Of a DNA stretch of 64,000 bases, positions 25,245-40,304 are shown piece after piece. Position numbers and translations under genes: made by a program. Within the stretch, counting starts at the first letter, position 1, and each line of letters begins with the position of its first letter. The notes below the pieces were generated by a model. It did not search any database. It saw nothing but the letters and a program-made list of their open reading frames with translations, and was not told where the DNA came from. Source of the stretch: a bacterium BMS3Bbin03 (GTDB lineage: Bacteria; Zhuqueibacterota; JdFR-76; BMS3Abin05). The stretch spans positions 2,781 to 66,780 of the forward strand of contig BDTM01000128.1 in the NCBI GenBank assembly GCA_002898015.1, given 5' to 3'.

Positions 25245-26240
25245 TCACAAATTTTCTTCGAAATAGCGCATGCCGGTCTTCTTAAATTCTCTTCCGCTTT
25301 TTAAAACGATAAATTCTGAAATTCCGGTGGCGGAAGAGACTTCATCAATTAGGTGCTGCAAAACACCGGGGTTGGGTGCGTGAATCATGGTGTAATGGCT
25401 GTACGGCCAATTGGGGGCTGTCGCCCGCCGGTAGCAGTGACTGATTTGCGGGAATTCAGCCATGCGCCTGCCGGCCGCCGCGGATTTCTCCTCCGGTACC
25501 CGCCACACAACCATGGCATTCGATCTTGCCCCCATTTTTCGATGATTCAAAATGGCTCCGAATTTACGGATGACACCCGACTGTTTCCAGAATTTGATTT
25601 TCGTCAGAACTTCAGCCTCCGTGAGACCAATGCGTGTGCCGATCGTTTCAAACGGATTGGATTCCAAGGGAATCTCTTTCTGGATCAGGCGCACGAGCGC
25701 TTTATCGGTTTCAGAAAAAGAAGTTAGGTTCCCCTCCTTAAAAACAAAATTCTGTGAAGAAGATTTTGCATTGTTTTGGCCTGTTTCCGGATCCAGCAGC
25801 ACGTTGAGCTTGTAGTATTCCACAACGGGTAATTTTAATGTCGATTTCACGCCCGATCGATTTTTTACCTTCTCCAGAAATTCATCAATTTTTTTCTCCG
25901 AAGAGACCGCAATCGTAAACCATAAATTAAAGGTATGAAAACGCTCGTAGTTGTGGGTCACTCCGGGATGCCGGCTCACGTAATCCGCAACGGCCTCCAG
26001 ATGCGCCGGTGCCACTTCGGCGCCCACAAGTGCGCTGACATATCCGAGCGCTTTTGAATCGAAATTGGCACTGATCCGCCGGATCTTTCCCCTCGCCAGC
26101 AGATCCGAAATCGTTTCAATGACTTCCTGCTCCCCGCTTCCGCATGTTTTTGCCAACTGCAAATAGGGACGGGCCGCCAGCGGAAAATCAGTCTGTAAAT
26201 CACCAAGCAGTTTTTTCTCTAATTTAGAATCTGTTGTCAT
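25245..26240 (-). CDS. ahbAB: Siroheme decarboxylase, fused AhbA/AhbB (NirDL/NirGH-like)
   Basis: Two tandem Lrp/AsnC-like units: GVTHNYER..FNLWFT and ISHCYRR..WPYSHYTMIH..EFKKTGMRY. Confidence 0.88.
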   Translation of the reverse strand: MTTDSKLEKKLLGDLQTDFPLAARPYLQLAKTCGSGEQEVIETISDLLARGKIRRISANFDSKALGYVSALVGAEVAPAHLEAVADYVSRHPGVTHNYERFHTFNLWFTIAVSSEKKIDEFLEKVKNRSGVKSTLKLPVVEYYKLNVLLDPETGQNNAKSSSQNFVFKEGNLTSFSETDKALVRLIQKEIPLESNPFETIGTRIGLTEAEVLTKIKFWKQSGVIRKFGAILNHRKMGARSNAMVVWRVPEEKSAAAGRRMAEFPQISHCYRRATAPNWPYSHYTMIHAPNPGVLQHLIDEVSSATGISEFIVLKSGREFKKTGMRYFEENL

Positions 26241-27352
26241 GAAAGGGTCTCCGTTTCCGGTTCATATGCACAATACGGATCTTCATTTAAAAAATCACCT
26301 GTCACCGCAAAGGCACGGGAACGCGACCCGCCGCAAATGGAGCGAAAGGCACACCGTCCGCATTTGCCTTTTAACAAATCCGGATTGCGCAGCGCCTGAA
26401 AAATGGGAGAATTGCGATACACATCCACAAGAGAATTTTCTCGAACATTCCCCCCGCTTGCCGGCAAAAATCCGGACGGAAAAATACTTCCCGTGTGTGA
26501 AACGAACACAAACCCTTTTCCATCGTTGATGCCGGGCAAAAACCGGCCTTTCCCCGAATTTGTTTCCTGAATCAATTGGCTCACAGAAATATCCATTTCC
26601 TGCGCCATCTGTTGAATCACCACGCGCCGGTAATGCGGCGCCTCCGTGGTTTTAATTCGAAAGGAGTATTGTTTGGAAAAATCGTATAATTTATTCAGAA
26701 CAAGCTCATATTCATTTGCCGTAATCTCGTCTTCCGGTTTTCCCCTGCCAGTCGGAACCAGAAAAAACAGACTCCAGCGGGACACGTTCAGACCGGCCAC
26801 CATTTCCGCCATTTCATCCATCTTCTGCCAATTGAACCGGGTCACCGTGGTGTTGACCTGCAAATCCATTCCCAATTCTTTCACCCACCCGGCACCGTTC
26901 ATGCACCACCGGAAAGAGCCTTCGACATTTCGCAGCGCATCATGGGTCTCCTTATCCGGCCCGTCGATGCTAATCGAAACACTTCGCAGCCCGGCATTCT
27001 TTGCGCGGTCTAAGTTTTCATACGACAAAAGAGGGGTCCCGCTGGGACTCAGCCCCACGCGAAGCCCAATTTCACTGGCGTAAGCAATGAGTTCAAACAG
27101 ATCCTCCCGTTTCATCGGATCACCACCCGTAAACACAAACAGAGGGCGGCCAAAACGCCGAATTTCATCCAGAAGGCCGAACCCTTCCCCGGTGGTCAGC
27201 TCCAACGGATGATGCAGGGGCTGAGCCGACGCCCGGCAGTGCCGGCACGCCAAATCACACGCCTGAGTCACTTCCCAGATCACCAAAAACGGGGATTTTT
27301 CAAAATTGACACCCCGCAGCAAATCGCTCTTTTTCGGCATTGTTTCAATCAT
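26237..27352 (-). CDS. Radical SAM/SPASM protein (TIGR04053-like), probable AhbD-type heme b synthase
   Basis: [16 protein letters not shown] (CxxxCxxC), [30 protein letters not shown]; located in the Ahb operon. Confidence 0.75.
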
Positions 27353-28323
27353 TTTTGCAGCTCCTCTGCCGCCTGATGAGCAAAATAAGTCAGGATTAAA
27401 TCGGCGCCTGCCCGCTTAATGCCGGTCAGGATTTCCCACATGACCGTATTCTCATCGATCCATCCCATTTTGCCGGCGGCTTTGACCATGGCATATTCAC
27501 CGCTGACATTGTAGGCGGCCACCGGCCGGCCGGTCAGATTTCGCACCTCCCGAATCACATCCAGGTAGGCGAGTGCCGGTTTGACCATCACAATATCCGC
27601 TCCTTCTGCCAGATCGAGCGCCACCTCTGCCAGTGCTTCCCGCCGATTGGCCGGATCCATCTGGTAGGTTTTCCGGTTGCCAAACCCGGGCGCCGAGCCG
27701 GCAGCATCCCGAAAGGGGCCGTAAAAGCCGGATGAATATTTTGCGGAATACGCCATAATGGGAATCCCGTATGCACCGGTTGCGTCAAGCGCTTCCCGAA
27801 TGGCCTTCACGGCGCCGTCCATCATTCCGGAAGGCGCCAGCATGTCAGCGCCTGAATTGACCTGAGAGACCGCCGTCTTTCGAATCAAATCGAGTGTGGC
27901 ATCATTGTCCACATCGCTGTTTCGGACCACGCCGCAGTGCCCGTGATCGGTATATTCACAGAAACACAAATCATTAATCAGCACCAAATCCGGAACAGCC
28001 TCCTTAATGGCCTGATTTGCGGTTTGAATAATTCCGGAATCATCGTAAGCGCCGGTCCCGAGCGCATCTTTCGACTCCGGGATCCCAAACAGAATGACGG
28101 CCGGAACGCCCAAACGGTCGAGTACCCGGCATTCTTTTACCGCTTCATCAACGGACATCTGAAAAACGCCCGGCATAGAAGGGACTTCTTTTCGAATGCC
28201 TTCTCCGGGACACACAAACAACGGCGCGATAAAATCTTCCGCGGATACCTGTGTTTCCCGCATCATGCGCCGCAGATTTTCTGTCTTTCGCAGCCGTCTC
28301 GATCGATTTATTGGAAAAGCCAT
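27349..28323 (-). CDS. hemB: Porphobilinogen synthase
   Basis: [45 protein letters not shown]. Confidence 0.97.
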
Positions 28324-28357
28324 TTTACATTCCTTTTTGCTGTTTCTATTTCGGCCA

Positions 28358-29572
28358 TCATCCCGCAGACAATTTTTGCAGGGGTTCGACTTTCAGGCCG
28401 ATTTCTTCGTCACTTAAATAACAGGCCGGGTCCGGCGCCCACATGTCACCGGTAATGGCTTCGGCACGCACGCGCAGATTTCCGCCGCAGATATCCAGCC
28501 ATTTGCATTTCGCGCAGCGGCCTTTTACATGCTGTTTTTTGGTTTTCAGTTTCATCAGAAATTCATTGGAGGTATCCGTCCAGATCCGGCTAAAGGGCTG
28601 CTCCAGCACATTGCCCAGAACTTTATCCCGCCAGAACTGATCCGGATAGACGCTCCCGTCCCAGCTAACACTGGCGACGCCCACGCCGGAACTGTTCCCG
28701 CTGTTCATTTTCAGCAATTCGAGTGCATTTTGGGCCCGTGCCGGATCCTCCTTCTGTAACCGCAGATACAAATAAGGCCCGTCCGTATGGTTGTCGACGG
28801 TGAGAATTTCCGCCGGTAACGCGTTGTCGTGCATCTTCTTCGTGCGGTCCATAATATAGTCCACCGCTTTTCGCGTTTCGTCGTGTGTTAAGTCGTCCTT
28901 CACTAATTTTGTGCCGCGTCCGGTATAAACCAGGTGATAAAAACAGGCCCGTGTGATACGGCGTTCTTCAATCAAATCAAAAATCTGGGGCAGGTCCTGC
29001 ACATTAATCCCATTCATTGTGAACCGCAAGCCCACCTTTACACCCACTTCCTGACAATTTCGGATGCCTCTCATGGCCAGATCAAAAGCGCCTTTCATGC
29101 CGCGGAACCGGTCGTTCGTTTCACGCATGCCGTCCAAACTGATTCCCACGTAAGACACACCCATTTCTTTCAGGCGATGCGCCACTGTTTTCGTAATTAA
29201 TGTGCCGTTTGTTGAAAAGACCGTGCGAATTCCTTTGCGGATTGAATACTCCGTCAGTTCAAAGATGTCTTCCCGGCGGAACGGCTCCCCGCCTGAAAAA
29301 AGAAGTACGGGTACCCTAAATTCCGCCAGATCATCTATAAATGATTTTCCCTGCTCGGTTGTCATTTCCCCCCGGTAGTCGACATCCTGAGATTTTGAGT
29401 AGCAGTGAATACAGTGGAGATTACAGCGCCGGGTGACGTTCCAGACGACAATCGGTTTTTTATCCAGCGAGAACTGCAATAAATTCGCCGGCATCTTACC
29501 TGATTTCCGTCCGTAACGAAGCGGATCGGACGGCTCCACCGTCCCGCAGTATAATTTTGAAATACCTATCAT
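28358..29572 (-). CDS. ahbC: 12,18-didecarboxysiroheme deacetylase / Fe-coproporphyrin synthase (radical SAM)
   Basis: [55 protein letters not shown]. Confidence 0.93.
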
Positions 29573-31149
29573 GTGATTTTCCCTTTCTGAAATTTGCGCG
29601 TTTTTGCCCCCATCTCATAAGAAACAAGTGCCTTGACCAAGTCCGGAATTAGAAACTGTTTCGGCATGACGGTGGTGTGAAACCCAAAGCGCTCGGCTGT
29701 TTTTTGCGTAATGGGCCCGATGCAGGCCGTTTTGACGGCAGAAGCCACCTGAGGAATCTTTTCTGCACCGATTAATTGGACAAACTTTTCCACCGTTGAA
29801 GAACTTGTAAAGGTGATCCAATCGGGGAAAGCGGCCGGCTTTTCGAACAAATGAGCGGCCATTTCTCTTGAACGGCTGTTTAAAATGGTCCGGTAAACCG
29901 GCGCAACGGTGACAATTGCGCCCATTTGTTTCAACGTCTCCGGCAGCACGTCCCGCGCCGCTTCCGCACGCGCCAGAACCACCGTTTTGTTTTTGAGTGA
30001 AACCGTTTGAAAGGCTTCGATCAGCCCTTCCGCAATAAAAGACGCCGGCTGTAAATCGGGGATTAATCCGTAGTTTTTCAGAGCTTCCGAGGTGGCGGCG
30101 CCAATGCTGGCAATTTGGATTTTACCGAGCGCCCGAACATCTACTCCCGAATCGAACAAACGCTGCATCCATCTTTTGACGCCGTTGGCGCTGGTAAAAA
30201 CCAGCCAATCGATCCTTTCCGGATGGGCTAAAACTTCATCCGCAGATTTCCAGGATTCCGGGTCGACAATTTCGATGGCAGGCAGAACAATTGCCGCCGC
30301 ACCCTGCTCTCTCAGCAAATCTGCCAGAGAGCCGGCCTGCCCCTGAGCCCGTGTGACAAGAATTCGTTTTCCAAAAAGCGGCTTTTTTTCAAACCAGGAA
30401 AGCTTCTCACGCAAATTGACCACTTCTCCCACGACAATCAGTGCGGGCGGTGCCAGCCGGACGGCTTTTGCCCGGTCTGAAATGGTTTCCAGTGTCCCCA
30501 CGAGTACGTTTTGGTCCGGCAATGTACCGTTCCGAATGACAGCCGCCGGTGTCTGCGGAGATTTCCCGTGGGTTATCAATTGTGCCGTAATTTTAGGCAA
30601 TTGTCCCACGCCCATGTAAAAAACAAGCGTGCTTTTTTCCGCAGCCAGTGCCTTCCAATTAATATCTGAATTTTCCTTGGCAGGATCTTCATGCCCTGTG
30701 ACAAACGTAAGCGATGCGTCCATGCCGCGCAGTGTCGCCGGAATACCGGCATAATTTAAAGCGGCTGCCCCTGCCGTAATGCCGGGCACGACTTCAAACG
30801 GAATGCCGGCCTCCCACAGAGCAAGCGCTTCTTCGCCGCCGCGTCCGAAAATGTACGGATCTCCCCCTTTCAGCCGCACCACAACCGCACGGGTTTGAGC
30901 TTTTTCGATGAGGAGCTGATTAATCTTTTCCTGCCGAAGTGTGTGCTGCCCGGCTTTTTTTCCCACGTAAATTCTTTCCGTATGTTCGGGAACCCAATTC
31001 AGCAGTTCGGAATTGACCAGATTGTCGTAAATAACCACATCCGCTTTTTTTAAGAGAGCCTGCCCTTTTAAGGTGAGAAGACCCGGATCGCCGGGGCCGC
31101 TGCCGATCAGGTAAACCGTGCCCGTTTCTGATTTTCCAGGAGATTTCAT
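29569..31149 (-). CDS. cobA-hemD: Fused uroporphyrinogen-III C-methyltransferase / uroporphyrinogen-III synthase
   Basis: GSGPGDPGLLT, RLKGGDPYIFGRGGEE, then ILVTRA, FTSANGV, FTSSSTV, CIGPIT. Confidence 0.93.
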   Translation of the reverse strand: MKSPGKSETGTVYLIGSGPGDPGLLTLKGQALLKKADVVIYDNLVNSELLNWVPEHTERIYVGKKAGQHTLRQEKINQLLIEKAQTRAVVVRLKGGDPYIFGRGGEEALALWEAGIPFEVVPGITAGAAALNYAGIPATLRGMDASLTFVTGHEDPAKENSDINWKALAAEKSTLVFYMGVGQLPKITAQLITHGKSPQTPAAVIRNGTLPDQNVLVGTLETISDRAKAVRLAPPALIVVGEVVNLREKLSWFEKKPLFGKRILVTRAQGQAGSLADLLREQGAAAIVLPAIEIVDPESWKSADEVLAHPERIDWLVFTSANGVKRWMQRLFDSGVDVRALGKIQIASIGAATSEALKNYGLIPDLQPASFIAEGLIEAFQTVSLKNKTVVLARAEAARDVLPETLKQMGAIVTVAPVYRTILNSRSREMAAHLFEKPAAFPDWITFTSSSTVEKFVQLIGAEKIPQVASAVKTACIGPITQKTAERFGFHTTVMPKQFLIPDLVKALVSYEMGAKTRKFQKGKIT

Positions 31150-32450
31150 TCTGCCCTCAGCGCCTCCAGCAAACTCACCGTAATTTTATCGAAGGCCATA
31201 TCGAGATCTTCCGGCTGCATGGCATGCGATAAAAACACCGTCTCAAAAGGCGACGGCGGAAAATAGATTCCTTTTTCCAACAACGAGTGGAAGAATTTTG
31301 CGTACAACCCGGCATCTGCCCCGGATGCCTGCTTGAAATTTTCAACCGCGGTGTTTGTAAAAAATAGCGTCACCATGGAGCCCACCTGGTTAATGGTCAC
31401 CGGAAGCGACTTTTGGTGTATCCATTTTTTCAATCGGGCGACAAAGATAGTCGACGTTTCATTTAATTTTAAAGGAATCCGGTATTTTTGCAGATAGTCA
31501 AGTGTTGCAAGCCCGGCAGACATGGCCAACGGATTTCCCGACAGGGTGCCGGCCTGATAAATCGTTCCGGCAGGCGCCAGCGCATCCATCACATCACATC
31601 TCCCACCCACGGCGCCCACCGGCAGACCGCCTCCAATGATCTTTCCCAAACAGGTCAGATCGGGTTGGACGCCAAACAATTCCTGGGCGCCGCCATTTGA
31701 AAGACGGAATCCTGTAATGACTTCATCAAAAATAAGAAAAATGCCGGCCTGCCGCGTCAATTCCCGGAGCCCTTTTAGAAACCCTTCTTTGGGGGGGACC
31801 GTGCCCATGTTTCCGGCAACCGGCTCCACAATCACGGCTGCAATCTGGCCTTTAAAAGCCTCCACGAGCGATTCAACGGCAGTCAGATCGTTGTAAGGCG
31901 CCAGCAGCGTGTCCGAAACCAGGCTTTTGGGTACGCCCGGGGAACCCGGAATTCCCAGAGTGGCTGTGCCCGAACCCGCTTTCATAAGAAACGAATCTGA
32001 ATGCCCGTGATAACAGCCTTCAAACTTAATAATTTTGTCTTTATTGGAAATCCCGCGTGCCAGCCGGACGGCCGTCATCGCGGCTTCGGTCCCCGAATTC
32101 ACCATTCGTACTTTTTCAATGGAAGGCACCAGTTCGACCACTTTGGCGGCGAGCGCCACTTCCGCCTCTGTCGGTGCACCAAAACTCGTCCCCCTCTCCA
32201 GCGCTTTTTGAATGGCTTTTACGACCACCGGATGTCTGTGCCCCAGAATCAAAGGCCCCCAGGAACTCACGAAATCCAGGTAGCGATTTCCATCGGCATC
32301 GATGATAAACGGGCCGTCCCCTTTTTGAATAAACACGGGCGTGCCGCCCACAGAACCGAATGCCCGAACCGGACTGTTCACGCCGCCGGGGATAAATTTC
32401 TGCGCTTTTTCAAACCAGGCTTTGGAACGGTCGTTTTGCATCACCTTCAA
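31146..32450 (-). CDS. hemL: Glutamate-1-semialdehyde 2,1-aminomutase
   Basis: PGGVNSPVRAF, SWGPLILGH, FEGCYHGH, GKIIGGGLPVGA, QAGTLSGNP. Confidence 0.97.
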   Translation of the reverse strand: MKVMQNDRSKAWFEKAQKFIPGGVNSPVRAFGSVGGTPVFIQKGDGPFIIDADGNRYLDFVSSWGPLILGHRHPVVVKAIQKALERGTSFGAPTEAEVALAAKVVELVPSIEKVRMVNSGTEAAMTAVRLARGISNKDKIIKFEGCYHGHSDSFLMKAGSGTATLGIPGSPGVPKSLVSDTLLAPYNDLTAVESLVEAFKGQIAAVIVEPVAGNMGTVPPKEGFLKGLRELTRQAGIFLIFDEVITGFRLSNGGAQELFGVQPDLTCLGKIIGGGLPVGAVGGRCDVMDALAPAGTIYQAGTLSGNPLAMSAGLATLDYLQKYRIPLKLNETSTIFVARLKKWIHQKSLPVTINQVGSMVTLFFTNTAVENFKQASGADAGLYAKFFHSLLEKGIYFPPSPFETVFLSHAMQPEDLDMAFDKITVSLLEALRAE

Positions 32451-33376
32451 TTCCTTTTGTATCCTTTTAAAATTTCTCTTGCACTCTGTTGAAGCATTTT
32501 TTGAGCCAGAATTTCACCGGCTTTTTCCGGCTCTTCGACGTGTGCCACAACTTTTTCGCGGAGAATTTTCCTGCCGTCAAGGGAAGCCACCATCCCCGTC
32601 AGAATAATTTGATTGCCGACCACCTGCCCCAGAGCCCCGACCGGCACATGACACCCGCCTTCAATTTGACGCAAAAATTCCCGTTCGGCTCGAAGTGCAC
32701 CTTCCGTTTCCGGGTGAGCAATCGAACGGACCAACTGCCGCACTTCCCGGTCATGGCGGCGCCCTTCTATGGCGATGGCGCCCTGCCCGACTGCGGGCAG
32801 ACAAATCTCCGGCGGCAGAAATTCCGTCACATAGGACCGATATCCCATTCGTTTGATGCCCGCCCAGGCGACGACAATTCCATCCCAATCGGATTCCTGA
32901 TATTTTCGCAGCCGTGTGTCAATGTTCCCGCGCAGATTTTTAAATTGAAACTCCGGGCCGTATGCCAGAAGCTGTGCCTTCCGGCGGAGACTCCCTGTGG
33001 CAAGGCACGCTTTAGGCGGCAATTCTTTTAAGGTCCATCCATTTTGGGCCAGCAGCACATCACGCGGATCTTCCCTTTCGGTAAATGCCATTAAATCAAA
33101 ATCTTCATGAATTTCAGAGGGTAAATCTTTGGCACTGTGTACGGCAAAATCAATCTCCCCTTTCCGCAGAGAACGTTCAATTTCTTTGATAAAAACGCCC
33201 GTATCCCCCAATTGGTCTAACGGGCGAGTCTGCTCCCGATCTCCGGTGGTCGTGATTTTGACAAGTTCAATCGAGAGCCCCGGATTTCGATTAACCAGAC
33301 GTTCTTTCACCCAATAGGCCTGCCAGAGTGCCAATTTACTGCCGCGTGTTCCGAGTTTGTATGTGCGTTTTAACAT
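32447..33376 (-). CDS. hemC: Hydroxymethylbilane synthase
   Basis: GTRGSKLALWQ, VHSAKDLP, SLRRKAQ, RGNIDTRL, EGGCHVP. Confidence 0.97.
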   Translation of the reverse strand: MLKRTYKLGTRGSKLALWQAYWVKERLVNRNPGLSIELVKITTTGDREQTRPLDQLGDTGVFIKEIERSLRKGEIDFAVHSAKDLPSEIHEDFDLMAFTEREDPRDVLLAQNGWTLKELPPKACLATGSLRRKAQLLAYGPEFQFKNLRGNIDTRLRKYQESDWDGIVVAWAGIKRMGYRSYVTEFLPPEICLPAVGQGAIAIEGRRHDREVRQLVRSIAHPETEGALRAEREFLRQIEGGCHVPVGALGQVVGNQIILTGMVASLDGRKILREKVVAHVEEPEKAGEILAQKMLQQSAREILKGYKRN

Positions 33377-33400
33377 TAATTGTCCGATACCGTTATATTT

Positions 33401-34654
33401 TTATTCCAGATCAAAAAACTGTTTGATGACACTGATTTTATGAATGCCGTCGGGATTGTTGTAAAGTTCTTTCAATTTTACAGTCGGCAGATGGAGGATT
33501 TTATTAACGATTCGGCGCGTCATTTCTTCCGCAACAGGCCACTGTTCTTCTGGGAATTTATGTTCGTACTGTTTAAACTCTTTTTCCAGAATTTCCTCAA
33601 ACCGTCTGCGCAGCTTTTGAATCGTTGGATTGATCTGCAAATTTTTGATCCAATTCAGAAAATCAACCGTTTCAATTTTAATGATCTCGACGGCCTTTTC
33701 CGCTTCTCTTTCCCGCGAGGCCCGGTTTTGGGCAACAATTTGTTTTAGATCATCGATGTCGTACAGATAAATGCCGTCGAATTCACGAATCTCCGGATCC
33801 AAATCATAGGGAACGGCAATATCTATCAAAAACAAATTTCGCTTTTGGCGGATTTTAAGAATTTTTTGAATATCCTCTTTTACGAATAAGGGCTCCGGAG
33901 AACTTGTGGCCGTGATCACAATATCCGCCTGTATTAAATGCTCCATCACCTGCTCAAAGGGAACGGCTTTTCCTTCAACCCTTTCGGCAAGGTCCTGTGC
34001 TTTTTGCAAGGTCCGGTTGGCGACGATTATATTTTTCACGCCGGCTTGCTGCAGATGCCGGGCGGTTAACGCCGCCGTTTCACCGGCTCCGATGACGAGC
34101 GCACGACAATTTTGAATCGGATAAAAAATCTTTTCCGCCAATTGAACGGCCGCATGCCCCACAGAAACAACCCCGGATCCGACTTCTGTTTCCACGCGGA
34201 CCTTTTTATTCACCTCAAAGGCTTTGTGAAAAAGTCGATTTAAAATGGTTTTTGTTCCGCCAAACTGTGCGGCCAATCGATACGCTTCCCGCACCTGACC
34301 GGAGATTTGTGTTTCGCCGATAACCAGTGAATTTAGTCCGCCGATGACAGAAAACAAATGACGCACCATTTTATCGTTGGCGTGATGGTAAAAGTAGGCA
34401 GAGGCCTCTTGGCCGGGTAAATCAAAATAATCCAGATAAAATGTCTTTAAGGTCCGGATTCCTTCCTGCTCATCCAACACCACGGCGTAAATCTCACTCC
34501 GGTTACACGTGGAAAGGATCGTCACTTCCTGAATGCCGGGTAGAGAGAGTAATTCAGCGTAGATTCGGGGGTAATCTTCCCGGAGAAAGGTCACTTTATT
34601 TAAAAATTTTATGGATGCAGTTTGATGGCTAATCCCGTAGACAATTAAATCCAT
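33401..34654 (-). CDS. hemA: Glutamyl-tRNA reductase
   Basis: Catalytic STCNRSE, GETQISGQV, NADPH-binding IGAGE, IDIAVP, dimerisation KILHLP. Confidence 0.96.
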   Translation of the reverse strand: MDLIVYGISHQTASIKFLNKVTFLREDYPRIYAELLSLPGIQEVTILSTCNRSEIYAVVLDEQEGIRTLKTFYLDYFDLPGQEASAYFYHHANDKMVRHLFSVIGGLNSLVIGETQISGQVREAYRLAAQFGGTKTILNRLFHKAFEVNKKVRVETEVGSGVVSVGHAAVQLAEKIFYPIQNCRALVIGAGETAALTARHLQQAGVKNIIVANRTLQKAQDLAERVEGKAVPFEQVMEHLIQADIVITATSSPEPLFVKEDIQKILKIRQKRNLFLIDIAVPYDLDPEIREFDGIYLYDIDDLKQIVAQNRASREREAEKAVEIIKIETVDFLNWIKNLQINPTIQKLRRRFEEILEKEFKQYEHKFPEEQWPVAEEMTRRIVNKILHLPTVKLKELYNNPDGIHKISVIKQFFDLE

Positions 34655-35262
34655 TCGCGCAATTTATCCTTCACCTGCTTAATCGTTCCGTTTTGCAGGC
34701 TTGCCATCACCTGCGGCATAACAATCGTATCCATTATCCGCCGCCTTTCGACGGGATTGTCAACTTCTTCTTTCAGATGGCTTCGAATATTCCCGACAAT
34801 TTTAAGCGCTTCTTCATAAGATTCATCAAAAAGAGATTCCATAATTTTGCGAATTTCCCGCGCCATTGCGGGTGACTGACCGCTGGTGGAAATGGCAATT
34901 TGTAAATCCCCTCTGCGCACAATTGCCGGTACGTAAAAATCACAATTTTCCGGCTCGTCCACAACATTGATGAGCGTCTTTTCTCTTTTCGCCTCTTCAT
35001 AAATTTCCCGATTAACCTGCGGGTCATTTGTGGCGCTGATCGCCAGAAAATAGCCCCTTAAATCGCCCGAATGGTATTTTCGGTAATGGCAGATAATTTC
35101 GGCATTGATCCACATCCGGAAAAGTTCCGGTGTCAGGTCGGGACTAATCACCGTCACCGAAGCGCCGTACCGGTGCAGCGTTTTCACCTTTCGCTCTGCC
35201 ACTCTGCCGCCGCCGAACACCACACATTTTCGGTTCTTCAATTGTAAATAAATGGGATACAT
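34645..35262 (-). CDS. Precorrin-2 dehydrogenase / sirohydrochlorin ferrochelatase (SirC/Met8p/CysG-N)
   Basis: MYPIYL, GGGRVAERK, NVVDEP..CDFYVPA, ISTSGQSPAMA. Confidence 0.92.
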   Translation of the reverse strand: MYPIYLQLKNRKCVVFGGGRVAERKVKTLHRYGASVTVISPDLTPELFRMWINAEIICHYRKYHSGDLRGYFLAISATNDPQVNREIYEEAKREKTLINVVDEPENCDFYVPAIVRRGDLQIAISTSGQSPAMAREIRKIMESLFDESYEEALKIVGNIRSHLKEEVDNPVERRRIMDTIVMPQVMASLQNGTIKQVKDKLREWI

Positions 35263-35300
35263 TTTTAATGCTTGTCCTTTTGTTTAGCTCCTGAGATATG

Positions 35301-35317
35301 TTCAATTTTTATGCCAA
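35301..35317 (-). promoter_or_regulatory. sigma54 (-24/-12) promoter of the heme operon
   Basis: Minus strand reads TTGGCAT-AAAAA-TTGAA, about 40 nt upstream of the first ATG; exact -24/-12 spacing, with GA instead of GC at -12. Confidence 0.75.
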
Positions 35318-35444
35318 ACCTTCAAAATATGAGTCCGTTTTTTAATCATTATTCCATCGTAACTTGTTAATTATCAAGTAAACTAAAAAACGCCTGCTTT
35401 GCGGCGTTTTCTTTTTTACGGCCCGCGATGATTTTTGGGCCATT

Positions 35445-35483
35445 GGCTTTTCATTTTGAAAAACGGCTTTTCATTATGAAAAA
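35445..35483. promoter_or_regulatory. Tandem palindromic enhancer (UAS) sites, TTTTCA-N3-TGAAAA x2
   Basis: GGCTTTTCATTTTGAAAAA (35445-35463) and GGCTTTTCATTATGAAAAA (35465-35483), 20-bp period, about 130-165 bp upstream of the -24 element. Confidence 0.7.
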
Positions 35484-35495
35484 TTTTTATGACCG

Positions 35496-35520
35496 ACCTG
35501 ATGGTGAACCATCAGGCTAA
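35496..35520. repeat. 25-bp palindromic repeat, copy 2
   Basis: Identical to 24679-24703, same orientation. Confidence 0.8.
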
Positions 35521-35684
35521 GAATGGAAAGCGCCATAAATGGCGCTCACACAGCAGGACGCTTCAGCGTTCTTTTTTCTACTAAAAAGGTGCCGCCATTT
35601 GTTAAATCCAACCCCTCTGGCTGGTCGTAAAACCAAGATTGAAAAGAATACAATAATCGTAAGAGTACATCTTTGTGAAGAACC

Positions 35685-37619
35685 TCATTTGTTCTCTTTC
35701 CCCTGGATTCCGTATTCTTTTAATTTCCGCCAGAGTGTGGCCCGGCTAATCCCCAGCACTTCGGTGACTTTCCCCAGATTCCAGTCATAATATTCCAGTG
35801 TTTTTAAAATATGCTGCTTTTCCACTTCATAAAGTGTCGCCCATTCGGACGTATTTTGCGCCGACGGTTCTTCGTAAAATTGAATTTCCCGGGGCAGATC
35901 TGTGGGTGTAATGTGCTGCCCGATTGTCATGATAACCGCGCGTTCAATCGCATTTTCCAGCTCACGCACATTCCCCGGCCAGGGATAATTTTGCAGCAGC
36001 GCCATCGCTTCCTGGGTGATTCCCACAATGCGTTTTCCCGCCCCCTGACTCAGCTTCTCCAGGAAATAATCGGCCAATTCCGGGACATCTCCCTTCCGGA
36101 GACGAAGCGGCGGCACGACGATGTGGAACACTTTCAACCGGTAATACAAATCTTCCCGAAATTTGTGCTGTTCAACCAATTCTTTTAAATTTTTATTCGT
36201 GGCGGCAATGACCCGAACATCGACCTGGATGGTTTGTGTGCTTCCCACCCGGCGCACTTCACCCTCCTGAATGACACGCAAAATTTTGGCCTGCGTTGCG
36301 GGCGACATCTCTCCGATTTCATCCAGAAAAACAGTGCCCTGGTCGGCTTCTTCAAACAACCCTTTTTTCTGGGAAACAGCCCCGGTGAAGGCACCTTTCA
36401 AATAGCCGAACAACTCACTCTCCAGCAGCGTCTCCGATATCGCCGCACAATTGACCACAATGAAAGATTTCTCTGCGCGGGGACTATTTTTATGAATGGC
36501 TTTTGCCACCAATTCTTTTCCTGTCCCGCTCTCCCCTTCAATCAGAACCGTCGTGTTGGCAGTCGAAACCCGGGCGATCATTTCCAGCACCTGCTGTAAT
36601 TTCCGGCTCTTTCCAATGATTCCCGAAAACTCAAATCGCTCCCGCGAATACTGCCATGAAATAAATTCCTCCACCTCTTTCTCGAGCCGTTTCAGTAAAC
36701 CCGGCACTTCTTTTTGGCGGTCGTTGAAATTTTTCTGAATAATGGCTTGCAAGTCATCCCGATTATAGCAAAAAAGCAGCTCATCCACAATCTTTTCCGG
36801 GGCCTGATCCGTCAAATCAATGATTAACAGGGGCGTTCCTCTGCGGGGTTTCAACTGTTCGGAAACATGCGCTTTCCAGGCCGCTGCCGGCGGTTTTTGT
36901 TCCAGCCGGACAAGGATGTCAAACGTCTCGTTCGGCAGATTCCGGTTGGTTTCGGGAATCAAGGCATCCGGCTTTAACATCCTCTTCTGAATTGTCTTGA
37001 ATTTCAATTGTCGAAAATACCGGTACAGAAGCGGCCCCTCCGCGGAATCTCCGACAAGAGCCAAACGAATGTGCCGGATATTTCCGAAAATATGCCTTCC
37101 CAATTCGACAATGGCACTCTCAATCGTCACCGCTTCCGTAAAAAGGGAGGAATCGTCTACAATGCTTTTATAAAATTTTACACCGCTTTGAAACAGGCGA
37201 TTTAAAACCGGGCCTGTCAGTTCACTTTCCAGGCTTTGGGTGTATCCTTCCTTAACATTTTCCAGAAACTTGACATCTCCGATGATCGGCGTGCCGATTC
37301 CAAGCAGAACTTCAAAGAAATGGCGGATGCTTTCGCCCCGCTCCCATTCAAAAAAAACGCCTTTCGGCAATTCGGAAAGTACCGGAAATACAGACAGATA
37401 CACATCCTTTACCGAGCGAATCGTCTGATCGATGTCATCCGACACAAATACGCCTTCAAAATGATAGGGCGTATGAAAGGCCATTGCTTCTTCAAAATAA
37501 GTTTTCCGTTTAATTGCCGATAAAAATTCTCTGAAATTCCCGGAGACCAATTCTTTAAGAATGATTCTATTTTCTATCCAGGGAAGTTTTAGTCCAATTG
37601 AAATGATTTCGGAAGCCAT
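35685..37619 (-). CDS. sigma54-dependent activator (AAA+ / Fis-HTH) with an N-terminal degenerate glutamyl-tRNA reductase-like domain
   Basis: C-terminal half has GESGTGKE, GAFTGA, FLDEIGE, FREDLYYRL, WPGNVREL and HTH LGISRATLWRKL. The first ~325 aa align by eye with the neighbouring HemA. Confidence 0.9.
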   Translation of the reverse strand: MASEIISIGLKLPWIENRIILKELVSGNFREFLSAIKRKTYFEEAMAFHTPYHFEGVFVSDDIDQTIRSVKDVYLSVFPVLSELPKGVFFEWERGESIRHFFEVLLGIGTPIIGDVKFLENVKEGYTQSLESELTGPVLNRLFQSGVKFYKSIVDDSSLFTEAVTIESAIVELGRHIFGNIRHIRLALVGDSAEGPLLYRYFRQLKFKTIQKRMLKPDALIPETNRNLPNETFDILVRLEQKPPAAAWKAHVSEQLKPRRGTPLLIIDLTDQAPEKIVDELLFCYNRDDLQAIIQKNFNDRQKEVPGLLKRLEKEVEEFISWQYSRERFEFSGIIGKSRKLQQVLEMIARVSTANTTVLIEGESGTGKELVAKAIHKNSPRAEKSFIVVNCAAISETLLESELFGYLKGAFTGAVSQKKGLFEEADQGTVFLDEIGEMSPATQAKILRVIQEGEVRRVGSTQTIQVDVRVIAATNKNLKELVEQHKFREDLYYRLKVFHIVVPPLRLRKGDVPELADYFLEKLSQGAGKRIVGITQEAMALLQNYPWPGNVRELENAIERAVIMTIGQHITPTDLPREIQFYEEPSAQNTSEWATLYEVEKQHILKTLEYYDWNLGKVTEVLGISRATLWRKLKEYGIQGKENK

Positions 37620-37636
37620 TAAAACTCACCACCCAT

Positions 37637-38458
37637 TTAATACGCGTGCACACTTGAGATAAATGTGCTGAAAATCATAAAAGAAATAACGATCCATCCA
37701 AAGCCGACAATAGAAATGTAGGCACTTTTCCGGGGATGCCAATTCAAAAACCACCGAACGCTGAGGTACATGGCATAAATCAGCCAGGTGACAAACACAC
37801 TTAAAATTTTAGAGTCCAGATACCAGACATGGGTCAAATATTTTGAAGCCAGTGAAAGTGCAATGAAAATGCCCACTGTGAGAAAGATAAACCCAATGTA
37901 AATCGACTCCAGGCTCAGGCGGTCCAGAAGTTCAAGCGCGGGCAATCTCGAGTAAAAATATTTTAAATTTTTCTCCCGCAATTCTTTTAACAATGATAAA
38001 TACATAAAACTTGCGATAAACCCAATCGTCAATCCCGAATAGGAAAAGAGCATGATCAGCACATGCACCTGAACCCAGTCGTCCTGAAAATACGGCGGCA
38101 TGGGGCCGTGATGCAGGGGAAACACATTCGCGATCAATACAAATGTCGTCATGAGGCCCACAATAAAAATACCGAACGCCTGTTCCCGCAGGCGGATTTC
38201 AAGCACAAAATAGAGAACTCCAAAGAGCCACATCCATGTGAATGAAGCTTCACCCACACTTAGCACGGGAAAATGACCTTCCAGCCGCCATTGGAATACA
38301 ATTACAAGCGTCTGCAGAAGGATGCCGGCAAGCAGAAGAAAAGATGCCGGTCTGGCGAGACTTTTAGTCTGTTTCTGAAAATAGCGAATGTAAAACAAAA
38401 AACTCAGAAAATACAGCAAAAATACCGTCCATCGAAGAATCAGAATCAAGGTTTCCAT
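37637..38458 (-). CDS. HemX/CcsA-like membrane protein (cytochrome c assembly family)
   Basis: About 8 TM helices, HFP, VHV (His), RLPALELLD, WYLDSK, C-terminal His; no ResB/CcsB partner nearby. Confidence 0.85.
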   Translation of the reverse strand: METLILILRWTVFLLYFLSFLFYIRYFQKQTKSLARPASFLLLAGILLQTLVIVFQWRLEGHFPVLSVGEASFTWMWLFGVLYFVLEIRLREQAFGIFIVGLMTTFVLIANVFPLHHGPMPPYFQDDWVQVHVLIMLFSYSGLTIGFIASFMYLSLLKELREKNLKYFYSRLPALELLDRLSLESIYIGFIFLTVGIFIALSLASKYLTHVWYLDSKILSVFVTWLIYAMYLSVRWFLNWHPRKSAYISIVGFGWIVISFMIFSTFISSVHAY

Positions 38459-38602
38459 GGCTCCTCGCCGTTTAATTAAATTAAAGCTCCCGAAAGTCCG
38501 GACAGGCGTTCGGGGAGATTTTCTTCATCGAGCGTCCCCATTTAAAATACGAAGTCCCGGTTGAGCAAATTAAGCGCACAATCATCTGTGGTAATCTATT
38601 TT

Positions 38603-38631
38603 AAAATAATGAATTATCTTTCCCCATGCAA
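38603..38631 (-). promoter_or_regulatory. sigma70 promoter for the hemX-like/activator pair
   Basis: TTGCAT-17nt-TATTTT on the minus strand. Confidence 0.5.
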
Positions 38632-38714
38632 TAAAAAAGGTGAAGATTAAAGAATCTTCACCTTTTCCGGCACCGTTCGCCCGTCATCGGAAGCGATTTA
38701 AAGCGGGTGCCGGT

Positions 38715-40304
38715 CTAAAAAAGCCTCTCAAAGAAATTCCAGTGCCGCAGCGTCTCGGTTTTATTCTGTTCAAAAAGAGACAGCGCTTCCGGAACGTGAT
38801 TCAAAATATCGCCTGCAATCATGCCTCTTTGTCCCAATTTTTGAGCCGCCAGATCGCCTGCCATTCCGTGCGCAAAGGCACCGGAAACGGCGGCCTGCAT
38901 TCCCGTCATGCCCTGTGCCAGAAATCCCGCAATCAGACCCGTCAGGACATCGCCGGAGCCGGCTGTGGCCATGCCGGCGTTTCCGCTGGGATTAAAATAG
39001 GCGTTCCCATCCGGATCGGCCACAACGGTCGGAGCGCCCTTTAACAGAATCACACAATGGAGCTTTTGCGCCCACTTCCGGACGATTTCCACACGATTGG
39101 CCAGAATGTCTTTTTGTGAAACACCGGTCAGGCGTGAAAGTTCTCCGACGTGAGGCGTGAAAACAAGATCGGCAGGGTAATTTTTGATTAAATCAAATTG
39201 ACCGGCGAGATTGTTGATTCCATCCGCATCGATGACGATGGGTTTGTCCACCTTTTGTAAAAAAGCCCGTACAAATGCCTGGGTTTCCGGATGTGTGGAC
39301 AATCCCGGGCCCAGAGCCAGCACATGGCTCCACTTCAGCCAGCGGTCGATTTCATGGATCGCCCGGGAATGAATGCTGCCGGATTCCGTCTCCGGCAGGG
39401 GCGCCGTCATGACTTCGGTGATCTTCTCTTCAAAAACGGGATTAAACCGTTCGGGAATGCCCAGAACCACCATGCCTGCACCGCTCCGGAGAGCACTCAA
39501 AGAAGCCATTGCGGCCGCTCCGGTTAAACCGGTGGAACCGGCGATAATCAGCACTTTTCCGAAGGTGTTTTTGTAAGCATCCGCCGGACGGTGCGGGAGA
39601 AAAGCCGCAAGGTCTTCCGGCTGTACAAGATATTTACGGGGATTCACCTTTTCAAGAATGAACGAAGGCGTATTCAGATCGGCCACAAAAAGTGCGCCCT
39701 GGCGGCTGCGCGCCGGGTAAAAAAGCTGTCCCGTTTTAATGTTTCCCATTGTAACGGTAAAGTCCGCCTGCACGGCAGCGCCGGCCGTTTCTCCCGTGTC
39801 GCAGTTCACGCCGGACGGCGTATCCACTGCCGCAACGGGGACCTCCTGTGCATTGATCCACTCGATAATTTCCCGGTAAAGTCCACTGACCTCCCCGCGA
39901 ATGCCCGTGCCTAAAAGCGCATCCACGATCAATGCCGGCGTGTGGGAAGGCCGAAGTTCATCGGCGGATCGAATGTCGCGAATGGGAAGCCGCAGCTTCT
40001 CGGCGATCAGGCGGTTGGCGGCCGCTTCTCCCTTTAAATCTTCCCGGGCGGCAGTGGAAAAAAATTCAACACGGGCGCCCATCCGGCTTAAGTGACGGCC
40101 AACCACGAAACCGTCGCCGCCGTTGTTTCCTTTGCCGCAAATAATGCAGATGAGCTTTCCGGAAACCGTATTCAATTTTTGACGGATGGTTTGAGCCATT
40201 TTCAGGCCGGCATTTTCCATCAACAAAATGGCCGGTATTTCTAACGCCGTCACGGACAATTTGTCCACGGCGCGCATTTCCTGAACACTTACCAGAGGTT
40301 CCAC
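38715..40304 (-). CDS. nnr: Bifunctional NAD(P)HX epimerase/dehydratase
   Basis: LMENAG, GKGNNGGDG, DALLGTG, GPGL, DADG, TPHVGE, LKGA, ATAGSGDVL. Confidence 0.95.
   Translation of the reverse strand: MEPLVSVQEMRAVDKLSVTALEIPAILLMENAGLKMAQTIRQKLNTVSGKLICIICGKGNNGGDGFVVGRHLSRMGARVEFFSTAAREDLKGEAAANRLIAEKLRLPIRDIRSADELRPSHTPALIVDALLGTGIRGEVSGLYREIIEWINAQEVPVAAVDTPSGVNCDTGETAGAAVQADFTVTMGNIKTGQLFYPARSRQGALFVADLNTPSFILEKVNPRKYLVQPEDLAAFLPHRPADAYKNTFGKVLIIAGSTGLTGAAAMASLSALRSGAGMVVLGIPERFNPVFEEKITEVMTAPLPETESGSIHSRAIHEIDRWLKWSHVLALGPGLSTHPETQAFVRAFLQKVDKPIVIDADGINNLAGQFDLIKNYPADLVFTPHVGELSRLTGVSQKDILANRVEIVRKWAQKLHCVILLKGAPTVVADPDGNAYFNPSGNAGMATAGSGDVLTGLIAGFLAQGMTGMQAAVSGAFAHGMAGDLAAQKLGQRGMIAGDILNHVPEALSLFEQNKTETLRHWNFFERLF

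Follow-up and report, generated by a model that had tools for sequence, protein, structure and literature searches.

A HemX-like membrane protein paired with a pseudo-glutamyl-tRNA reductase/sigma-54 activator: a candidate module for heme homeostasis

The locus examined here raises the question of why a membrane protein of the CcsA/HemX type should be encoded next to a sigma-54 activator that carries a pseudo-glutamyl-tRNA reductase (pseudo-GluTR) domain. The locus lies in a 64,000-nucleotide stretch of contig BDTM01000128.1 (the window) from the bacterium BMS3Bbin03, a member of the Zhuqueibacterota. An initial annotation had read the pair as a heme-sensing circuit in which a HemX-GluTR recognition interface was co-opted for transcriptional control. 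HemX itself lowers GluTR abundance after transcription, and two reports, of 2018 and 2024, leave the mechanism undefined and name no partner (PMC5801465, PMC10991733). The study by Choby et al. (PMC5801465) also records that hemX was never found without gtrR in 978 genomes, reports four conserved transmembrane residues in HemX homologues, and describes heme binding as not demonstrated for any HemX.

Anatomy of the locus

Both genes lie on the minus strand of the window. The open reading frame list places the HemX-like gene (Pfam accession PF01578, 273 amino acids) at positions 38,458 to 37,637 and the sigma-54 activator gene (644 amino acids) at positions 37,619 to 35,685. The HemX-like stop codon ends at 37,637 and the activator ATG is at 37,619, leaving a 17-nt spacer (37,620 to 37,636, minus strand) that reads as a purine-rich ribosome-binding stretch. 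The coordinates, gene order and gap given in the initial annotation were all correct on re-reading.

A stem-loop with a T-run (about 38,632 to 38,664, minus strand), read from the sequence 3′ of the nnr (YjeF) gene, forms the upstream boundary of the hemX-like transcription unit. A GC-rich hairpin and T-run stand at the equivalent place in four of four same-family loci; the terminator scan did not list the stem-loop in the window. Right after it comes a promoter-like motif (TTG...N...TAttTT, imperfect in the window; 38,600 to 38,634, minus strand), recognised by aligning five upstream regions by eye. The core elements of this motif, ATT(T)GCA...AAATT...TA.TTT, recur after the stem-loop in four same-family genomes where the upstream gene is a different one, and most substitutions fall in the window itself and in genome G004. 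Because the stem-loop is followed by a motif that recurs despite differing upstream genes, the pair starts its own transcription unit, as had been proposed. The accompanying claim of a sigma-70-like promoter did not hold for the E. coli type, since a scan of the minus strand from 38,459 to 38,714 gave no such site. The motif may resemble the Bacteroidota-type TTTG/TAnnTTTG promoter; we infer the promoter type. At the other end of the unit, a terminator-like hairpin found by the terminator scan (35,385 to 35,412, minus strand) probably ends the hemX-activator transcript. An Rfam search over 34,900 to 39,000 gave nothing credible (one match, E 0.77).

The HemX-like gene (37,637 to 38,458, minus strand) encodes a WWD-family membrane protein with eight helices, characterised by Pfam, NCBIfam, alignment, tree and structure model. 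PF01578 (Cytochrom_C_asm, E 1.9e-28) is its single Pfam family. On TIGR03144 the protein scores 114.7 bits, under the equivalog cut-off of 187.6, and three paired-type relatives reach 89.1-137.5 bits, whereas the ResB-adjacent CcsA paralogue of the same genome passes with 243.5 bits. The WWD segment reads LTHVWYLDSKI, compared with WGNFWSWDPKE in the genome's CcsA; this degenerate form of the CcsA motif WGxxWxWDPKE keeps one Trp, the Asp and the Lys, with Trp 1, Trp 3 and the Glu replaced. In the alignment, His132 and His271 occupy the columns of His761 and His897 in CcsBA (7s9y_A), presumably the periplasmic P-His1 and P-His2. Both are invariant, together with Asp215 and Lys217, in 16 of 16 HemX-like proteins. 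The transmembrane His of CcsBA ligates inner-leaflet heme (PMC10663686) and corresponds to His858 of 7s9y_A and to the His within YLHARY of the genome's CcsA. At this column the HemX-like protein carries Ser, and the position is not conserved among 16 paired proteins.

The structure model has eight long helices and matches CcsBA (7s9y) with a TMq of 0.70, and Lys and Arg occur only in alternate loops. In a tree of 31 rows, a CcsA-type clade of 10 rows (support 100/100) contains none of the 17 paired proteins. We found no ResB near the pair in the window; the sole ResB match in the genome is on contig C15, where it adjoins another PF01578 gene. The protein thus shares with CcsA/CcsBA the fold, two periplasmic His and two WWD-segment residues (Asp and Lys), and differs in its separate clade, its replaced Trp 1, Trp 3, Glu and transmembrane His, and its want of a ResB partner. 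By these sequence features it is HemX-like rather than a system II CcsA, and both the HemX-like assignment and the absence of an adjacent ResB/CcsB gene in the initial annotation stand. The nearest clusters in a protein language-model comparison are PF01578-only proteins of 273-297 amino acids, commonest in Bacillota, which we treat as a lead only.

The activator combines a pseudo-GluTR sensor domain (residues 1-329; 36,633 to 37,619, minus strand; catalytic-domain and NADPH-domain folds by Pfam, alignment and model) with a sigma-54 interaction AAA+ domain bearing a GAFTGA loop (residues 334-500; 36,120 to 36,620, minus strand) and a Fis-type HTH_8 DNA-binding domain (residues 596-636; 35,712 to 35,834, minus strand), the last two assigned by Pfam and alignment. 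Its Pfam matches are GlutR_N (40.3 bits, cut-off 27), Sigma54_activat (PF00158, 250.9 bits), AAA_lid_14 and HTH_8 (47.8 bits), and the HTH_8 recognition helix is almost invariant in 16 of 16 relatives. The sensor domain was modelled with a pLDDT of 86.7; its best PDB match is GluTR (1gpj, E 7.9e-16, TMq 0.71), and it shares 25% identity over 293 residues with the genome's own HemA.

The catalytic Cys of the TCNR motif is present in 14 of 14 true HemA proteins and in 0 of 16 fusion domains, and the second Gly of GxGxxG shows the same distribution (14/14 and 0/16). Pfam did not detect PF00745 or PF01488 in the fusion. While the sensor shares the catalytic-domain and NADPH-domain fold of glutamyl-tRNA reductase (HemA/GtrR; 1gpj, 4n7r), the fusion lacks the catalytic Cys, GxGxxG and dimerisation domain and carries AAA+ and HTH domains instead. 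As judged from these residues, the N-terminal domain is a pseudoenzyme, a GluTR fold without catalytic features. The fusion also has the attributes of a sigma-54 enhancer-binding protein: a GAFTGA AAA+ domain, an HTH, rpoN in the genome (contig C28) and, on motif evidence, a -24/-12 element with upstream sites.

Conservation of the pair and its predicted targets

We searched 167 genomes of the phylum with a profile and found a fusion-length open reading frame in 64. The HemX-like gene stands directly upstream of the fusion on the same strand in 60 of these 64 genomes, with gaps of 5-537 nt. In two of the four exceptions the partner is on another contig (G158, G162) and in one the fusion lies at a contig start (G070); the fourth is G077. 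Among the 41 nearest relatives, 17 have the pair. The adjacency is far beyond chance. The synteny proposed as a check is thus kept across many families, including five genomes without GluTR. A single-sequence sensor search at E<=1e-20 matched 6 of 41 genomes and suggested a fusion restricted to a single family, a reading refuted by weaker matches and the profile search. A single-protein scan with the activator gave a single true relative, besides 44 unrelated sigma-54 activators that match the AAA+ part only, and a search of 50% representatives gave about 14 fusion-length clusters among the best 150 matches, without gene context. We found no published description of a HemX-like/pseudo-GluTR activator module in the literature.

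The pairing was originally described as one with the pseudo-HemA instead of hemA. This is inaccurate for the window, where the true hemA is about 3 kb downstream of the HemX-like gene, within the proposed target operon, so that the HemX-like gene here is near both GluTR copies. It is accurate for other families, and many pair-bearing relatives have the true hemA on other contigs. A PF01578 gene directly upstream of a true hemA of 424-432 amino acids occurs in three genomes of the phylum (G082, G090 and G091).

A pattern scan and comparison with relatives identified two palindromes, TTTTCAtaaTGAAAA and TTTTCAaaaTGAAAA, 20 nt apart at 35,448 to 35,482, which we propose as upstream activator sites. 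They stand 146 nt upstream of a sigma-54-type -24/-12 element, TGGCAT-N5-TTGAA (35,301 to 35,316, minus strand; motif scan and relatives), which lies 54 nt before the cysG_N start and has TTGA rather than the textbook TTGC at -12; the terminator-like hairpin described above falls between palindromes and promoter. The proposed patterns are a tandem TTTTCA-N3-TGAAAA for the activator sites and TGGCAY-N5-TTGA for the target promoter. Nowhere else in the 3.63-Mb genome does the tandem arrangement occur. Three other full palindromes were rejected as targets because they are single and lie in or beside unrelated genes.

The promoter precedes an operon (25,245 to 35,262, minus strand; open reading frames and Pfam/NCBIfam) that runs from cysG_N to a siroheme decarboxylase. 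Its first part comprises cysG_N (precorrin-2 dehydrogenase/ferrochelatase), hemA, hemC, hemL and a cobA-hemD fusion, and the rest a radical SAM+SPASM gene, hemB, a radical SAM gene and a NirDL/AhbAB-like siroheme decarboxylase. By gene content, the operon encodes a complete siroheme-route heme pathway. Of 15 hemA-type operons examined, 14 are preceded by the palindrome (at most one mismatch) and 13 by a sigma-54-like element, even where hemA is on another contig. No sigma-54-like promoter was found for G007, and a search of five family f12 genomes for the palindrome-plus-promoter pattern gave one match, inside a coding region, and no f12 target.

Five genomes (98-100% complete) keep the pair without a GluTR above cut-off and without ALAD; the activator is the only GluTR-fold protein left in them. 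In four of these five, the same palindromes and promoter precede an operon for a lipoprotein and a TonB receptor. In NCBIfam the TonB receptor matches the heme/hemoglobin receptor family best, but its 175-180 bits do not reach the cut-off of 316.85 and the B12 receptor family scores almost as well. On this evidence the operon of these tetrapyrrole auxotrophs is a probable heme uptake operon. The activator targets, as predicted from these motifs, are likely heme synthesis or probable heme uptake operons. HemX has been characterised as occurring only with gtrR and de novo heme synthesis; the window genome conforms to this rule, whereas the five relatives break it.

Predicted complex and proposed mechanism

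Complex prediction for the HemX-like protein with the activator gave ipSAE values of 0.63, 0.69 and 0.68, against 0.00 for the best of three controls. These figures express the model's confidence and derive from 16-row alignments. At least 87% of the contacts are shared between runs, and the pLDDT of the partner is 76. Of 157 solved complexes, 116 reached the ipSAE mark, as did 2 of 215 mismatched pairs; this calibration is only rough because our own alignments were used.

On the HemX-like side, the contact residues (156-179 and 240-243) lie in two cytoplasmic loops with six and two Lys/Arg; the presumed periplasmic loops have none. On the activator side, the contacts (175-179, 260-263 and 280-300) lie on the NADPH-domain face and include or adjoin 6 of 13 invariant or almost invariant positions (I177, G179, L264, L265, D289 and L290). 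Part of the HemX-like contact surface is family-wide, as the loop motif LP(S/A)LE(L/F)(L/F)D also occurs in the genome's true CcsA; only an FYSR insertion before this motif is peculiar to the paired proteins. True HemA proteins from these genomes often carry the contact residues K-I-F, Y285 and D289 (Asp/Tyr) too, so that the HemX-like protein could bind true GluTR in addition to the activator or in its place.

Since the model passes its controls and places the contacts on conserved, topologically cytoplasmic residues, it points to a physical contact between the HemX-like protein and the pseudo-GluTR. Clustering with CcsA, a failure to interact and loss of the adjacency had been named at the outset as findings that would speak against the co-option idea; none of these materialised, the interaction being judged by prediction.

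We propose, with a probability of roughly 0.62, that the HemX-like protein and the activator constitute a membrane sensor/transcription activator module for heme homeostasis, with the HemX-like protein as anti-activator. The proposal builds on the gene anatomy, the pseudoenzyme status of the sensor and the conserved pairing and DNA motifs, all of which can be read directly in the genomes. The activator, with its dead-GluTR regulatory domain, would bind the tandem TTTTCA-N3-TGAAAA sites and drive a sigma-54 promoter, which would serve the siroheme-route heme operon here and the lipoprotein/TonB-receptor operon in tetrapyrrole-auxotrophic relatives. The HemX-like protein is related to CcsA and retains the two periplasmic heme-ligand His, but not the features of a cytochrome c synthase. 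Its two positively charged cytoplasmic loops would contact the NADPH-domain face of the pseudo-GluTR, and through this contact it would set the amount of free, active activator. Under plentiful heme the activator would be held or destabilised by the HemX-like protein, and under heme scarcity it would be released.

The co-option of a HemX-GluTR interface suggested in the initial annotation gains from the HemX-like identity, the conserved adjacency, the predicted contact and the heme-related predicted targets. Within that reading, we infer heme as the signal and heme binding by the HemX-like protein. For the negative sign of control we draw on HemX of Bacillus and Staphylococcus, a protein that lowers the abundance of GluTR, and it is on this analogy that the HemX-like protein is taken as an anti-activator.

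Other explanations of the adjacency deserve weighing. The pair could be a relic of a hemA duplication beside an ancestral hemX-hemA; the sensor would then act alone, its pseudo-GluTR sensing heme, glutamyl-tRNA, NADPH or the HemL partner, and the HemX-like protein would act on true GluTR, as HemX does in Bacillus. A PF01578 gene-true hemA arrangement does exist in G082, G090 and G091, the contact residues K-I-F, Y285 and D289 are frequent in true HemA, and a distance of only 3 kb separates the pair from the true hemA in the window. We nonetheless consider a relic unlikely: 60 of 64 genomes retain the pair, although hemA lies on other contigs in many of them, five near-complete genomes that have neither GluTR nor ALAD retain it as well, and the complex prediction passes its controls.

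It is distinctly unlikely that the HemX-like protein is a co-expressed heme transporter or membrane heme chaperone that acts indirectly, through a heme pool sensed by the pseudo-GluTR. The CcsBA heme-channel fold (TMq 0.70 to 7s9y) and the two invariant periplasmic heme-ligand His agree with such a role, as does heme binding by the GluTRs of several bacteria, reported in PMC10991733. However, the known heme export path is incomplete in this protein, given the loss of the CcsA transmembrane His and the lack of a ResB partner, and the predicted interface uses conserved residues on both proteins. That an ordinary system II CcsA stands beside a regulator by chance is hardly credible. The PF01578 match and the genome's use of system II would fit, but the protein falls below the equivalog cut-off that the ResB-adjacent paralogue passes, has a degenerate WWD and no transmembrane His, lies outside the CcsA clade at 100/100, and has the activator, not ResB, as its conserved neighbour.

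Relation to known regulatory systems

Known sigma-54 activators under partner-protein control include PspF with PspA, NifA with NifL and DhaR with DhaK/DhaL, and Mlc-PtsG exemplifies membrane sequestration of a regulator. The proposed sensor/activator module resembles the PspF-PspA, NifA-NifL and DhaR types in that an AAA+ activator is set by a second protein, here proposed to be membrane-bound. It differs from the PspF, NifA, DhaR and Mlc systems in its partner, a WWD-family heme-handling membrane protein, and in its docking domain, a pseudoenzyme from the first enzyme of the regulated pathway. None of these examples has this composition. The module would represent a previously unreported control of heme homeostasis, namely sigma-54 regulation via a pseudoenzyme sensor, with a regulon that switches between synthesis and probable uptake according to the organism's capacity for tetrapyrroles.

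Compared by features rather than by direct sequence comparison, the HemX-like protein resembles HemX of Bacillus subtilis and Staphylococcus aureus in being a PF01578-only protein of about 270 amino acids with eight helices and both termini outside, and, less clearly, in its hem gene neighbourhood, where the adjoining GluTR-fold protein is no enzyme. In contrast to HemX of these genera, it is conserved beside a transcription activator to which a dead GluTR is fused, so that the output here would be transcription rather than enzyme abundance, and the pair also occurs in genomes without gtrR. The mode of GluTR control by HemX has been a standing question since 1994. Because a HemX-type protein is tied to the GluTR fold in 60 of 64 genomes, including genomes without a GluTR enzyme, direct recognition of that fold is argued for, and our prediction supplies a specific interface for it. 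More tentatively, the contact between loop 5 and the NADPH-domain face may be the ancestral, general mode of HemX action; in one lineage the GluTR "handle" would have been copied onto a sigma-54 activator, which made a transcriptional heme switch out of post-translational feedback, and the switch would later have been rewired from synthesis to uptake upon loss of the pathway. In that event the module would name the long-missing direct partner, and the interface, of Bacillus and Staphylococcus HemX, and would offer a natural case in which a pseudoenzyme domain acts as the docking tag of a membrane heme sensor.

The best fold matches of the sensor domain include Arabidopsis GluTR complexes (5che, 4n7r). 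The plant proteins FLU and GBP found in such complexes offer a further likeness, as they regulate tetrapyrrole flux by binding the GluTR fold, FLU with an anchor in the membrane. They are unrelated to the HemX-like partner, however, and here contact is predicted on the NADPH-domain face, whereas FLU binds the GluTR dimerisation domain, a domain absent from the fusion.

The paired genes and their products

Two adjacent reverse-strand genes encode a 273-amino acid protein (Pfam accession PF01578; 38458-37637) and a 644-amino acid sigma-54 activator (37619-35685). Gene calls and sequence confirm these coordinates and the 17-nt spacer, both reported in the initial annotation. On the same strand, nnr/yjeF (40304-38715) and a stem-loop with a T-run precede the pair, and a 422-nt intergenic region separates it from cysG_N, hemA, hemC and hemL. 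The pair had also been credited with its own sigma70-like promoter. A sigma-70 consensus scan upstream of the HemX-like gene gave no match on the right strand, and what stands of that claim is a promoter-like motif 3' of the terminator, partly conserved in all five genomes of the window's family; the gene upstream differs in the other four. A leader of ~140 nt with a small hairpin (38459-38600, reverse strand) separates this motif from the HemX-like start codon. Leaders in relatives are similar in length and different in sequence.

The PF01578 protein belongs to the WWD family and is HemX-like rather than a cytochrome c synthase subunit, on the basis of scores, motif, histidines, tree, structural model and topology. 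The genome encodes four PF01578 proteins and a single ResB, on contig C15, so the pair was correctly described as having no adjacent ResB gene. The ResB gene adjoins a 272-amino acid PF01578 gene, whose product exceeds the cut-off of the CcsA equivalog model (243.5 bits against 187.6). With this model the score of the window protein is 114.7 bits, and three relatives of the paired type reach 89–137. Its WWD segment reads LTHVWYLDSKI, as against WGxxWxWDPKE in CcsA proteins. It retains the histidines aligned with His761 and His897 of CcsBA (chain 7s9y_A), which we take to be periplasmic, and has a serine in the column of His858, presumably a transmembrane residue. Across 16 paired-type proteins, His132, His271, Asp215 and Lys217 are invariant. 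A published account gives a four-helix core, the WWD segment and a pair of periplasmic histidines as the defining features of the WWD family, and describes transmembrane histidines that bind a second heme and are absent from CcmC (PMC10663686).

In a maximum-likelihood tree of 31 proteins, the CcsA-type clade (support 100/100) contains none of the 17 paired proteins, among which the backbone is unresolved; clustering with true CcsA, named in the initial annotation as evidence against its reading, was thus not found. We rejected an ordinary CcsA identity because of the sub-cut-off score, the changed WWD segment and the position outside this clade. CcsBA is the best match of the AlphaFold model (pLDDT 88.3), with a TMq of 0.70. 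Lysines and arginines number 2, 2, 6 and 2 in loops 29-33, 90-96, 151-180 and 237-243 and are absent from the other loops, which implies that both termini lie outside (N-out, C-out), as do the histidines and what is left of the WWD segment. Two further PF01578 genes of this genome, on contig C77, have open frames of 670 and 237 amino acids and are possibly CcmF/NrfE-like and CcmC-like.

The activator matches GlutR_N (40.3 bits, with the cut-off at 27) and the sigma-54 interaction domain (250.9 bits), and it also has an AAA lid and HTH_8. BLASTP aligns it with the genome's own HemA at 25% identity over 293 residues (E 1e-23), covering the catalytic and NADPH-binding domains as far as the start of the dimerisation helix. 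We compared 16 fusion domains, by alignment, with 14 true HemA sequences encoded in the same genomes. The catalytic cysteine and the second glycine of the NADPH motif are each present in 14/14 enzymes and 0/16 fusions. The sensor-domain model (pLDDT 86.7) best matches Methanopyrus glutamyl-tRNA reductase (GluTR; 1gpj, E 7.9e-16, TMq 0.71), followed by Arabidopsis GluTR complexes. The sensor domain is therefore a pseudoenzyme with a GluTR fold.

Conservation of the pairing

A single-sequence search (E<=1e-20) detected the fusion only in the window's family, but this restriction was rejected as a sensitivity limit of that search. When the membrane protein and HemA were used as queries and the loci inspected, both genes were found side by side in 17 of the 41 nearest relatives, spanning six families. 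We then searched every one of the phylum's 167 species genomes with profiles of both proteins and identified a fusion-length open reading frame (500 amino acids or more) in 64. The adjacency noted at the outset is kept in 60 of these, with the HemX-like gene directly upstream on the same strand and 5–537 nt between profile envelopes. In two of the four exceptions, the unpublished genomes G158 and G162, the partner is on a different contig; the fusion of G070 stands at a contig start, and G077 is the fourth. Leaving out G158 and G162 gives 60/62. The 64 genomes are a lower bound, since G080 shares the layout while the N-terminal domain of its activator has diverged beyond the reach of the profile.

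Three genomes of another family (G082, contig C96; G090, contig C3; and G091, contig C1) have the classical layout, in which a PF01578 gene immediately precedes a true hemA encoding 424–432 amino acids. Its presence in the phylum fits an origin of the fusion by hemA duplication beside hemX. The PF01578 proteins of these loci are very divergent (tree branch 2.68). The fusion family is small, as only ~14 of the best 150 profile matches among 1.84 billion 50%-identity representatives have fusion length. In G093 (contig C209, 6463-7473), a 421-amino acid open frame scoring 235.8 bits with the sensor-domain profile directly follows the HemX-like gene; same-genus G092 has a 653-amino acid fusion in its place, and the shorter frame may be a truncated or split activator.

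Predicted contact between the two proteins

The interaction proposed in the initial annotation is supported by a complex prediction of the HemX-like protein with activator residues 1–332, using a 16-row alignment for each. The ipSAE values were 0.63, 0.69 and 0.68 (best of three controls, 0.00), with at least 87% of contacts common to the runs and a partner pLDDT of 76. Of 157 solved complexes, 116 attain the mark applied, as do 2 of 215 mismatched pairs; these counts are only approximate here, since we supplied the alignments ourselves. To our knowledge there is no solved structure of a HemX-GluTR complex for the model to have memorised, and the membrane protein as query against PDB sequences retrieved just two, both CcsA/CcsBA.

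The predicted contacts are independently plausible because they involve cytoplasmic loops and conserved residues on both sides. Those of the membrane protein lie in loop 151-180 and at 240-243, in loops that are both cytoplasmic by charge count; they include the invariant L156, L172, P173 and L175 and adjoin the invariant E159, F168 and R171. Those of the activator (175-179, 260-263 and 280-300) include I177, G179 and D289, and have L264, L265 and L290 as immediate neighbours; together these are six of the 13 positions that are invariant or nearly so in the entire domain. The loop part LP(S/A)LE(L/F)(L/F)D also occurs in true CcsA, and the contact residues K-I-F, Tyr and Asp are also common in true HemA, so the membrane protein may bind true GluTR as well, as the co-option idea predicts. 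The model offers a concrete, testable interface for the HemX mechanism, a question open for three decades.

Target operons and control of heme supply

The 422-nt region before cysG_N contains palindromes TTTTCAtaaTGAAAA and TTTTCAaaaTGAAAA, 20 nt apart (35448-35482), a terminator-like hairpin (35412-35385) and a sigma-54-like element, TGGCAT-N5-TTGAA (35316-35301), 54 nt upstream of the start codon. Just five copies of the full palindrome exist in the 3.63-Mb genome, which encodes rpoN; the tandem form occurs only here, and the three other sites are within or beside unrelated genes. Palindromes and sigma-54-like element recur in the four other family genomes and in G080. In genomes of other families, the true hemA-hemC operon is 5–8 kb distant or on a different contig and still carries the elements. 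Among 15 hemA-type upstream regions examined, the palindrome (at most one mismatch) is found in 14 and the sigma-54-like element in 13; the second hemA paralogue of G008 has neither, and no promoter was found in G007. The recognition helix of the HTH is nearly invariant in 16 aligned activators, as expected if they share one DNA site.

The downstream operon (25245-35262, reverse strand, ~10 kb) encodes cysG_N, hemA, hemC, hemL, a cobA-hemD fusion, a radical SAM+SPASM protein, hemB, a second radical SAM protein and a fused NirDL/AhbAB-like siroheme decarboxylase. From its gene content it appears to be a complete siroheme-dependent (alternative) heme route, in which the two radical SAM proteins are probably AhbC and AhbD. 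Three extra short inverted repeats occupy the first 180 nt after the activator stop codon (35500-35684, reverse strand), making this intergenic region 170–210 nt longer than in three of four relatives; they have no Rfam match and are not conserved in the relatives. In same-genus G002, an insertion of 1.85 kb (locus L014, 8657-10510), which contains one or more open reading frames, separates the activator gene from the palindromes and hem operon, and the palindromes and promoter are intact past it.

We also identified the pair in five genomes that are 98–100% complete (G021, G031, G039, G152 and G166) in which no GluTR exceeds the curated cut-off and no ALAD was found; the top GluTR matches are the fusion domains, at 71–87 bits. 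These bacteria are apparently unable to make tetrapyrroles, judging from gene content. The palindrome is enriched in them (13, 4, 4, 3 and 5 sites, against 1, 0, 1, 0 and 0 for a reversed-pattern control). No target operon was identified in G021 and its family. In the other four, one or two palindromes are followed 147–166 nt later by TGGYAT-N5-TTTG and then by genes for a small lipoprotein and a TonB-dependent receptor. Two of the receptors best match the NCBIfam heme/hemoglobin receptor family, at 175 and 180 bits, below its cut-off of 316.85 and with B12 receptor scores not far behind. In these four genomes, the lipoprotein and receptor genes are followed by one for a seven-helix membrane protein without an assigned family.

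These observations favor, with a probability of roughly 0.6, a membrane-tethered partner switch in which the HemX-like protein would bind the pseudo-GluTR domain of the sigma-54 activator and so limit activation of the heme synthesis or uptake operon. By analogy with HemX of Bacillus and Staphylococcus, and from the logic of the regulon, control would be negative with heme as the signal. That the regulon covers heme synthesis in prototrophs and, in auxotrophs, a probable heme receptor likewise suggests heme or tetrapyrrole sufficiency as the signal. Purely historical adjacency of two functionally independent genes is unlikely and is weakened most by the auxotrophs, where, with no GluTR above the cut-off, the activator is the only GluTR-fold protein open to action by the HemX-like protein. 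An indirect effect through heme transport seems a little less probable again. That the membrane protein is an ordinary CcsA is scarcely credible, as every test of membership weighs against it.

HemX of Bacillus and Staphylococcus lowers GluTR abundance after transcription, according to two reports (PMC5801465; PMC10991733). In the first, Choby et al. describe hemX as never occurring without gtrR in 978 genomes and gtrR as adjoining 106 of 113 hemX genes; the present lineage departs from both patterns as given there. Within the literature covered, we found no published description of a sigma-54 activator with a GluTR domain paired with a HemX-like protein. The module joins elements of known kinds: HemX, partner-controlled sigma-54 activators and pseudoenzyme sensors.
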